From Escherichia coli (GTDB lineage Bacteria; Pseudomonadota; Gammaproteobacteria; Enterobacterales; Enterobacteriaceae): 64,000 nt of DNA. Location: the NCBI RefSeq assembly GCF_003018115.1, contig NZ_CP027457.1; one strand, written 5' to 3'. Below are positions 33,901-36,900 of this stretch, in pieces. Numbering within the stretch: position 1 is the stretch's first letter; each line of letters starts with the position of its first letter. Position numbers: made by a program.

Positions 33901-36900
33901 ACAAATAATTGTACCAACAGATGGCCATAACCGTGTAAAACCTTCTGAAAACTTCATTAAGGTTGTACCAATGACCTCTGCAAGTATTGCACCACCAAGA
34001 TAAATATAAGGATTCATAGCATATTCTTTCCTGTTCAAACTGGAGAGAATTGTACTACAGTTTGAACTCAACTCACCTGTTTCATCATTGTGTACCCATT
34101 GATGTTCTTTTATATACCCTCAATACCCGTTTCATCGCGGCACTCTGGCGACACTCCTTAAAAATCAAATTCGTGCTCACCTTTCCTTCCCATTCTTCTC
34201 TGGTAGCGAACCGATAATACACCGTTCGCCAGACCTTACCATCAACGACCAGGATTCCTGCCCGCGCCATTTTAGCCGCAGCCTGATTTATGCTGGTTAC
34301 CGTTGCGCCTGTTACCGCGGCAACGTCCTGCGCACAGAATTTCTTATGAGTCCCCAGGTAATGAATAATTGCCTCTTTGCCCGTCATACCCTTGCTCCTT
34401 TCAGCCCAAACTTAGCTTTGATTTCTGCGATCTTCGCCAGAGCCTGTGCACGATTTAGAGGTCTACCGCCCATGACAGGAAGTTGTTTTACTGGTTCAGG
34501 TATAGCCTCACCACGGTTAATTCGTGCGGTCATACAGGACAGTTCATCGGCAGCCTTGCGCCGTAATTCCGCGTCAGTCAACGCATTAGCCCGCATGTTC
34601 TGATACAGGTTGGTAACCAGCCAGTAGTGCGCGTTTGATTTCCACGGATAAGACTCTGCATCCGGATACAGCCCGCGCTTCCGGCAATACTCGTAAACCA
34701 TATCAACCAGCTCGCTGGCGTTTGGCAGCCCGGCGGTAACGGATGCTTCTTCCCGGCACCAGGCGACAAACTGCCCGGGTGATGGCAGGAATGGTCGATT
34801 CTGCCGACGGGCTACGCGCATTCCAGCGTTAACCTGTTCCATTGTGGTGATCCCGTTTTCCCGAAAAGCCAGCACCCACTGGCGGCGGATTTCGTTCAGT
34901 TCATTCTGGTCACGGTTAGCCAGGCTCGCCGGGAAAGTTGCCAGTAACTGGCTGAACACACCGTTGATGATCTGCGCTACCTGCTGTACCTGTGGCTTTT
35001 CGTCGTACTGTTCCGGCATGTTGTTGGCGATCCGACGCATCTGCTCACGGTCAAAGTTAACCATCTGTGCGGCGATGTTTTTCATAGATCCACCCCGTAA
35101 ATCCAGTCAGTGTTTGTCAGGTCGAGTTTTGGTTTGCCGACTGTCACGCCAGCCTGTTGCTTGTTCCGGTTGATTTCGAGCTGGGTCCACTTGTCGCGGA
35201 GTTTGGCCGGACTCAGCACGTTACCGGACCAGAAGTTGTCCTGGCAGGCCCAGCGGAACAGTACACACATGTCGCGGTGGTTACGTCCATCACGTTCACG
35301 CATCAGACGGATATCGTTAGCCCACCCTGCAAAATTCGGTTTTCTGGCTGATGGCGCGATGGTCTTCACCATGTCAAACATCCACTCTGCGGCGGTCAGG
35401 TCTTCTGCTGTCCCCCACTTGCTGCCGCTCTGAATCGCAGCATCCGCTTTCACCACAGGAAGGTCGTTTTCTGGCAGGTCAGAGGATTCGCCAGAATTCT
35501 CGGACGAATAAGGTTTTATATTGTCTTTTGTTAGTTTGTCTTTTGTGTTTACCTGATTCGGGTAAGTGCCTTTACCTGATTTGGGTAAACTTTTCTTACC
35601 TGATTCAGGTAAATTTACCTCTTTCAGGTAAACTTTATTTTTCTTACCTGATTCGGGTAATTTTGACCATTCCCTGACCACATTATTAATGCCGATATTC
35701 CGCCCGCTCTGAATAAAAATCCCACGCTTTACCAGAACACTTTTTGCAGCAGAACACTTGTGCGGCAATATCCCGGTCAACTCGGAAAGTTGCTCGTTGC
35801 TCACCCAATCCAGTTTTTTATTAAAGCCATATGTTTTGCGCATGACAGCCAGGAAGACCAGAAGCTGGTGCTGTGTTAATCCGGCCAGCATTACAGCTTC
35901 CAGCAACTCATTTGCAATGCGCGTATAACCATCATCGAGATCTGCCACGCGCGGCTCCTTTTGTGCCGCATCCGGCACTGGAAAATTGAATATCTCAGCA
36001 GTGTTTGCCATAATTCCTCCCGCAATGAGTGTGTTACGATTTGCACCTGAAAGTCGGTTCTGTTGCCGCAGACCGACTTTCGCCATTTTTGAACCTGTCA
36101 TATTGCCCCCAGCATGGTGGTGACCATCGCCATCAATGGACCAGCCAGATCTGGGTCCACTCGAAACATCGACACAATGCCTTCACTCATCTCCTTCAGT
36201 TTCTGGTGGCGTGGTGCGTTGAGAATGACCGCCTGCTTTGCCTCACTGAGTTCCTTTTCCATTTCAGCCAGCCGAGCCATGAAGCTATCCTGCTCAACCA
36301 GGTGGCCGCGATATTCCAGCGGTAGTACCGCCAGAATTGCCGGGGTCAGTTCACGCACGTTATTTCGGTATTTTTCAGAATCGAATTTGTTATCGAGGAA
36401 GCGGAACAGCTTCTGGCGTGCACGACTGACATCATCAGGAAAATCGATGGTGCCGCCGCCCTGTGCTCGATACTCATTCACAATGAGTGCGGCAACTACA
36501 TCCTGATTATCTTCAGCAGACCAGGCGCGGACGGCATCACGAATTTTTTCGTGGCCTGGCACCTGTTTTATTTGAGAACGATTTATCACCGCAGTCGGGC
36601 TAAATCCGCTAGTCTGTTGGTATGTAAGTGGTTGCATAATCATCGCCTTATCAGTTAACGCCGCAGATTAGGCGGCAGAATTACTCGCGTTAAACAATGG
36701 TGCGAGGTCGGGACGAATATCTGCTGGCTTAATCTTTCCACCAGTGGCTGAGACAATTTTCATTACATAGCGGGCATCAATTCCGCCACCGTGTAGCCAA
36801 CGCCAAACAGTGGGCTGGGCTACACCGCATAGATCTGCCAGTCGTTTTTGACTACCTGTAATACTGATTGCGAGTTGAATGGTTTGATTTGTCATTATCA

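Follow-up and report, generated by a model that had tools for sequence, protein, structure and literature searches.

The 64,000-nucleotide stretch of Escherichia coli DNA examined here (contig NZ_CP027457.1 of assembly GCF_003018115.1; hereafter the window) carries on its minus strand the replication genes O and P of a lambdoid prophage, and within gene O a cluster of short palindromic repeats (iterons) beside an A/T-rich tract. Gene O encodes the replication initiator (35082..36011, 309 amino acids (aa) from the ATG at 36011). It matches Pfam Phage_rep_O (2.9e-33) over aa 21-115 and phrog_277 (1.1e-160), a family labelled “replication initiation O-like”. Gene P (34384..35085, minus strand; Pfam Phage_lambda_P, 8.2e-62) overlaps the O stop codon and encodes the DnaB helicase loader. 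The segment 35508-35660 is very probably the replication origin of this prophage, built like that of phage lambda (ori-lambda) with a different initiator-binding sequence. As far as sequence goes, every feature expected of a lambdoid origin is present.

A search of the whole window for the pattern TTACC-N7-GGTAA (TTACCNNNNNNNGGTAA) returned exactly five matches, all within 35549-35660, against a chance expectation of 0.03. Five matches were reached in none of 100 dinucleotide-preserving shuffles (0/100), and no extra site with three or fewer mismatches to the full 17-mer was found elsewhere in the 64 kb. Read along the O strand, the array opens with iteron 1′ (35644..35660; TTACCCGAATCAGGTAA), followed after 12 base pairs (bp) by iteron 1 (35615..35631; TTACCTGAAAGAGGTAA), after 2 bp by iteron 2 (35596..35612; TTACCTGAATCAGGTAA), after 7 bp by iteron 3 (35572..35588; TTACCCAAATCAGGTAA), and after 6 bp by iteron 4 (35549..35565; again TTACCCGAATCAGGTAA), which abuts the A/T-rich tract with no spacer; all are exact pattern matches. 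The 17-bp consensus is TTACCYGAATCAGGTAA. The copies are near-perfect 8-1-8 palindromes in which 6 to 8 of the 8 arm positions are symmetric, iteron 2 being a perfect palindrome of this form and iteron 1′ symmetric at 7/8 positions. The first-pass annotation, made from the sequence alone, had reported five such copies at 35549-35660, and its start and end coordinates and example sequence are exact. It had also described the copies as evenly spaced, which they are not: start-to-start steps are 29, 19, 24, and 23 bp in the O direction (23, 24, 19, and 29 bp along the plus strand), so that iteron 1′ lies 29 bp upstream of the next copy. The array lies within the O coding sequence, as had been claimed, where it corresponds to codons 118-155 (counted from ATG 36011), in the part that encodes the inter-domain linker. 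A 48-bp direct repeat was considered as the trace of a recent duplication that created the fifth iteron, and was judged unconvincing because its identity is only 73% and the right half of its second copy is ordinary coding sequence (VREWS).

Directly after iteron 4 in the O direction lies the 41-bp A/T-rich tract (35508..35548; O strand ACACAAAAGACAAACTAACAAAAGACAATATAAAACCTTAT), the presumed DNA-unwinding element. It is 76% A+T, with a GC content of 0.30 in 40-bp windows, which agrees with the earlier mention of an AT-rich segment next to the repeats. No other 40-mer in the module's coding part is less stable, and within the window as a whole it ranks at the 98.85th percentile. Thirty-two of its 41 positions are identical in the lambda tract, as are 36 of the 38 bp that follow. 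None of the seven aligned sequences, among them lambda, Salmonella phage SEN34, the Klebsiella phages described below, and the window, departs from its core, CACAAAAGACA...ACAAAAGA.

The iterons of lambda are annotated as ITN1-4 in NC_001416 (39034-39118) and are followed by a 78% A+T tract. When the two loci are aligned, a check that the first-pass annotation had itself proposed, ITN1, ITN2, ITN3, and ITN4 fall on iterons 1, 2, 3, and 4, respectively, so that the four lambda sites line up in register with every copy but iteron 1′, and the lambda tract with that of the window. The classic lambdoid arrangement proposed for this locus is thereby borne out. Both origins lie inside the linker-coding part of O, both consist of dyad-symmetric iterons of 17-18 bp with an A/T tract directly downstream in the O direction, and the steps between the second and fifth copies in the window (19/24/23 bp) resemble those of lambda (20/24/23 bp). 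The two loci also share the C-terminal domain of O (96% identical), P (98% identical), and a pO/oop-like element at the start of O. In contrast, the window iterons read TTACC-N7-GGTAA where those of lambda read TCCCTC-N5-GAGGGA, their arms being only 40% identical, and there are five copies rather than four. The extra copy, iteron 1′, is on the side away from the A/T tract, at a position where lambda is without an iteron. Identity is likewise low, at 40-47%, in the N-terminal domain of O, whose recognition segment differs.

The start of gene O bears on how these domains are counted. The frame is open up to an ATG at 36101 (open reading frame 35082-36101, 339 aa), which is the start usually annotated, including by the Prokaryotic Genome Annotation Pipeline (PGAP) and in several phage records. 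We favour the ATG at 36011 because it has a strong ribosome-binding site (GGGAGGA) 5 nt upstream and aligns with the O starts of lambda, 434, and SEN34. The real O protein is thus probably 309 aa long, and the first 30 annotated codons are probably an over-call. Both O and P are full length and free of frameshifts, and P is identical to lambda P at 228 of 233 residues (98%), which supports, at the level of sequence, the earlier claim of an intact replication module.

Overall, O is 69% identical to lambda O, with the identity distributed very unevenly: it is 40% for aa 1-155 as a whole, 47% for aa 1-117, 18% for the linker encoded by the iterons, and 96% for aa 176-309. The switch in identity falls at the A/T tract. 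The C-terminal domain (aa 176-309; 35085..35486) is of the lambda type and presumed to bind P, a role taken from the published domain model in which an N-terminal DNA-binding domain is joined by a flexible linker to a C-terminal P-binding domain (PMC6022878). The putative origin-binding domain (aa 1-117; 35661..36011) is predicted to be a winged helix-turn-helix. In an AlphaFold model of the N-terminal 120 residues, helices at 47-61, 72-79, and 83-95 are followed by a hairpin at 99-108, with a predicted local distance difference test (pLDDT) score of about 90 in the core and a mean of 75. The best fold matches in the PDB are all winged-helix regulators of the CRP/FNR and MarR kinds, which bind palindromes as dimers, at a weak E of about 2e-3. 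The helix at aa 83-95 (PHKCSAAKSVLVK) is the putative recognition helix.

Around this helix, every phage with TTACC..GGTAA iterons has the identical segment ILPHKCSAAKS. The corresponding segment is LPVKRCNEAKL in lambda, with iterons TCCCTC..GAGGGA, and KHHTHCSTAKN in SEN34, with iterons TTAGC..GCTAA. Across lambda, the window, and SEN34, the recognition segment as read from the protein sequences thus co-varies with iteron type. A non-lambda specificity domain in O had been proposed for this locus, and the comparison makes a non-lambda specificity of both the origin and the O domain well supported at the sequence level, because identity to lambda O is 40% in the N-terminal part of O against 96% in the C-terminal part, and because the window contains no match to the lambda-type iteron ATCCCTCAAAACGAGGGA within three mismatches. 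By the same comparison, the origin does not belong to the strict ori-lambda specificity type represented by lambda, 434, and 21. Phages 21 and 434 carry lambda-type four-iteron origins; phage 21, which the first-pass annotation had named as a comparison, is therefore ruled out as a source of this origin type.

Variation in iteron number has precedent in the Shiga toxin (Stx)-converting phages 933W and P27, which have six iterons, the two extra ones on the side distal to the A/T tract (PMC7466680). The window resembles them in that its extra copy is on the same distal side, and differs in having one extra copy rather than two and another specificity type, the iterons and O of the Stx phages being lambda-type in sequence. 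The origin of Salmonella phage SEN34 is closer in layout. At least three palindromic sites align with iterons 2-4, with 24- and 23-bp steps; the phage shares the A/T tract, and its O C-terminus and P resemble those of lambda. Its sites, unlike those of the window, read TTAGC-N7-GCTAA, a symmetric change in both arms, and its O recognition segment differs. SEN34 (gene O, 1180-1260 of the compared locus) represents, by alignment, a third iteron specificity type on the same scaffold.

The reverse combination is found in Klebsiella phages KO-TP1, ST11-VIM1phi8.2, and GZ7, which have the same iteron type and O N-terminal domain as the window, with a different O C-terminus and partner. GZ7 and ST11-VIM1phi8.2 have a DnaC-like helicase loader of the AAA+ family, and KO-TP1 has another P-like protein. 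Just past the A/T tract these phages cease to resemble the window, which places a module junction inside gene O and is consistent with the published domain model of O (PMC6022878). Iteron 2 is identical in KO-TP1 and differs by one central base in GZ7 and ST11-VIM1phi8.2 (TTACCCGAATCAGGTAA), its arms unchanged. Three or four exact iteron copies are kept in these phages, and none in lambda, 434, 21, or SEN34.

The steps by which such an origin would work can be proposed by analogy with lambda (PMC5043065; PMC6022878; PMC7466680). Each iteron would be bound by a dimer of the winged-helix N-terminal domain of O. The O dimers would bend the DNA and wrap it into an O-some, which on a supercoiled template would strain and open the adjacent 41-bp A/T tract. 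The lambda-type C-terminal domain would then recruit the P-DnaB complex to the opened tract, after which host chaperones would release DnaB. A pR-like promoter (36927..36955, minus strand; TTGCCA-17-TATTAT with an extended TG, 10/12 in a consensus scan), inferred from its position upstream of a cro-like gene, is predicted to transcribe the cro-like and cII-like genes, O, and P through the origin. Its transcription could both supply O and P and activate the origin. We infer O binding, unwinding, recruitment of P, and activity in this strain from this analogy.

The repeats could in principle be a mere by-product of an LPESGK peptide repeat in the flexible O linker, with no role as DNA sites, and the location of the array, together with the fact that three of the five copies encode LPESGK or LPKSGK, fits that explanation (linker: PMC6022878). 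Only those three copies are read in codon phase 1 (LPESGK, LPESGK, and LPKSGK), however; the other two are read in phase 3 and encode YLKEVN and TYPNQVN while holding the same DNA. The same DNA in two codon phases with unrelated peptides means that the repeat is kept at the DNA level and not as a peptide repeat. A peptide repeat would not need the palindromy of each copy, and the iteron positions coincide with those of the experimentally bound iterons of lambda. Conservation points the same way. Against the three Klebsiella phages, whose identity to the window here is about 83%, 146 of the 150 iteron-arm positions are conserved (97%), compared with 81% for the iteron centres, 63% for the spacers, and 72% for the upstream coding sequence. 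The codon phases, the conservation of the arms, and the retention of all five copies together indicate that selection acts on the DNA sites themselves, and a pure peptide origin for the repeat is hardly credible. It is just as improbable that the palindromes are operators for another phage or host regulator rather than initiator sites. Many dimeric regulators typically have 17-bp palindromes as their sites, and the winged-helix proteins that O matches in fold are themselves transcription factors, but the motif was found nowhere else in the window, including the cI/cro intergenic region. It also co-varies with the O recognition segment and not with the immunity genes, as Klebsiella phages with other repressors keep the iterons.

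A further alternative accepts the origin and holds that it is a dead relic that no longer fires, the prophage being defective like DLP12 of E. coli K-12. Judged from its closest annotated relative, the host element is a full-length lambdoid prophage, a relative of DLP12 and phage 82, integrated at the argU tRNA gene; it abuts tRNA-Arg(tct) (argU; 44935-45011), the DLP12 attachment site. The location and the genes shared with DLP12 (emrE, ybcK, rusA, quuD, and intD) speak for such a relic, and a closely related E. coli copy of the prophage has a nin-region pseudogene with an internal stop. Against this stand the full-length, frameshift-free O and P described above, five iterons that are all exact and identical to those of plaque-forming phages, and the closest annotated relative, in which the head, tail, terminase, lysis, recombination, and integrase genes form a full complement. 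That relative, in an E. coli genome 98.5% identical over 24 kb, is a full-length lambdoid prophage beside tRNA-Arg with tail, head, terminase, lysis, Q, rusA, ybcK, emrE, Red, and intD genes, a set that makes it the complete counterpart of the defective K-12 prophage DLP12. We consider a dead origin unlikely. Some observations do weigh against the reading of the segment as a five-iteron lambdoid origin. A sequence search found no solved O structure, the fold matches of the N-terminal domain are weak, and the promoter consensus scan as a whole returned no more sites than chance. Iteron 1′ is degenerate by one arm base in the Klebsiella phages, and binding to the iterons distant from the A/T tract is only weak in Stx phages (PMC7466680); by analogy, the fifth copy of the window may likewise contribute less. 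A lambdoid origin in the segment 35508-35660 nonetheless remains the reading that we prefer.

At the start of O, on the plus strand, lies a pO-like promoter (35986..36014; TTGAAT-17-CATAAT) whose −10 box overlaps the O ATG on the opposite strand, as in lambda pO. Just upstream of the O start is a candidate oop-like antisense small RNA (about 36021-36090, plus strand) with a hairpin and U-run. The hairpin has 14 bp (dG −24.6, z −3.4), and its loop, UUGCCGC, is shared with the lambda oop terminator. The segment 35986-36090 (plus strand) is likely to encode an antisense small RNA of the oop type; an Rfam scan of 32000-40000 at E <= 0.1 returned no match, and so lends it no family support.

Upstream of O are a YdaT-domain gene, a small helix-turn-helix gene that takes the place of cro, and, in divergent orientation, a gene for an S24-peptidase repressor. 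The gene in the cII position (36098-36643, minus strand) matches Pfam “YdaT toxin” and is classed in PHROGs as a CII-like activator, while that in the cro position (36668-36901, minus strand) matches Pfam “YdaS toxin” and is classed in PHROGs as a transcriptional repressor. Given where these two genes lie, the PHROGs classes are a better fit than a role as toxins. Two plus-strand genes of unknown function occupy the place of lambda rexAB, between the repressor and the kil/gam/bet/exo block, one for a 340-aa protein without a Pfam match (37822-38844; phrog_3482) and one for an apparently membrane-spanning protein of 168 aa (38866-39372; phrog_16807). A PADLOC scan of these two genes gave no matches; they could be an uncharacterised exclusion or defence pair. 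On the other side of the module, P is followed by a ren homologue and directly thereafter, still inside the prophage, by the multidrug efflux gene emrE (33685-34014, minus strand). In the closest annotated relative, the late region also includes an iss/bor-like serum-resistance gene and an nmpC/ompC-like porin gene.

The origin is very common. Phages PhiR26_1, 4A7, Turner, and PhiR30_1, as well as two E. coli chromosomes, have every one of the five iterons in exact form and at the same spacing. The allele occurs in about 15 isolated phages, including 4A7, Lambda_4C10, 1W, 3W, Perceval, Turner, and the PhiR series. In isolated plaque-forming phages with the same O/ori allele, O is 96-97% and the origin 97-98.8% identical to the window and the five iterons are unchanged, which indirectly favours O/P-dependent replication from this origin. 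Of 5,426 complete E. coli genomes, 2,376 (44%) have a 241-bp ori segment at a coverage of at least 80%, mostly at 95-99% identity, and a single genome can have the allele at up to five places in different prophages, as in strain E2865 (NZ_AP018808.1). The exact O protein falls in a cluster built at 90% identity that has 7,825 members and the name “replication protein”, in which the 40 members examined have only generic names, and iteron annotation is absent from all the allele records inspected. In short, it is a lambdoid origin of the textbook kind, its non-lambda specificity type is very common, and it is not new.

Its relation to phage 82 is a lead rather than a result. Over the nin region, the window and the phage 82 record X92588 are 96.6% identical. 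In the classical work of Furth and Yates in 1978, Grosschedl and Hobom in 1979, and Moore and colleagues in 1979 and 1981, phage 82 reportedly combines a non-lambda ori specificity with a lambda-compatible O C-terminus and P. The origin in the window could thus be the classical phage 82 type described around 1979-81. The iteron sequence was not found in print by a literature search that did not reach the 1979-81 ori82 sequence papers. A more ambitious reading is that the TTACC-N7-GGTAA origin and its O domain form a biochemically never characterised class orthogonal to lambda and the commonest lambdoid origin type in E. coli; we regard this as possible, though doubtful.

Nothing in this origin is surprising, and its import beyond annotation is small. 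The value lies mainly in having the origin marked and a complete-looking O/P replication module placed in a full-length DLP12/82-like prophage. In practical terms, the database records of this allele are without iteron annotation and probably start O 30 codons too early. The comparison also illustrates how such modules are assembled: the iteron set and its matching O N-terminal domain behave as one unit, the O C-terminus and the helicase loader form a second, and the conserved A/T-rich tract is the joint between them. As one genome can hold as many as five copies of the allele, co-resident prophages may cross-activate or titrate one another's replication. Should the class prove orthogonal to lambda, the O protein of one prophage could fire or titrate the origins of other prophages in the same genome, an interaction that the distal fifth iteron might tune.

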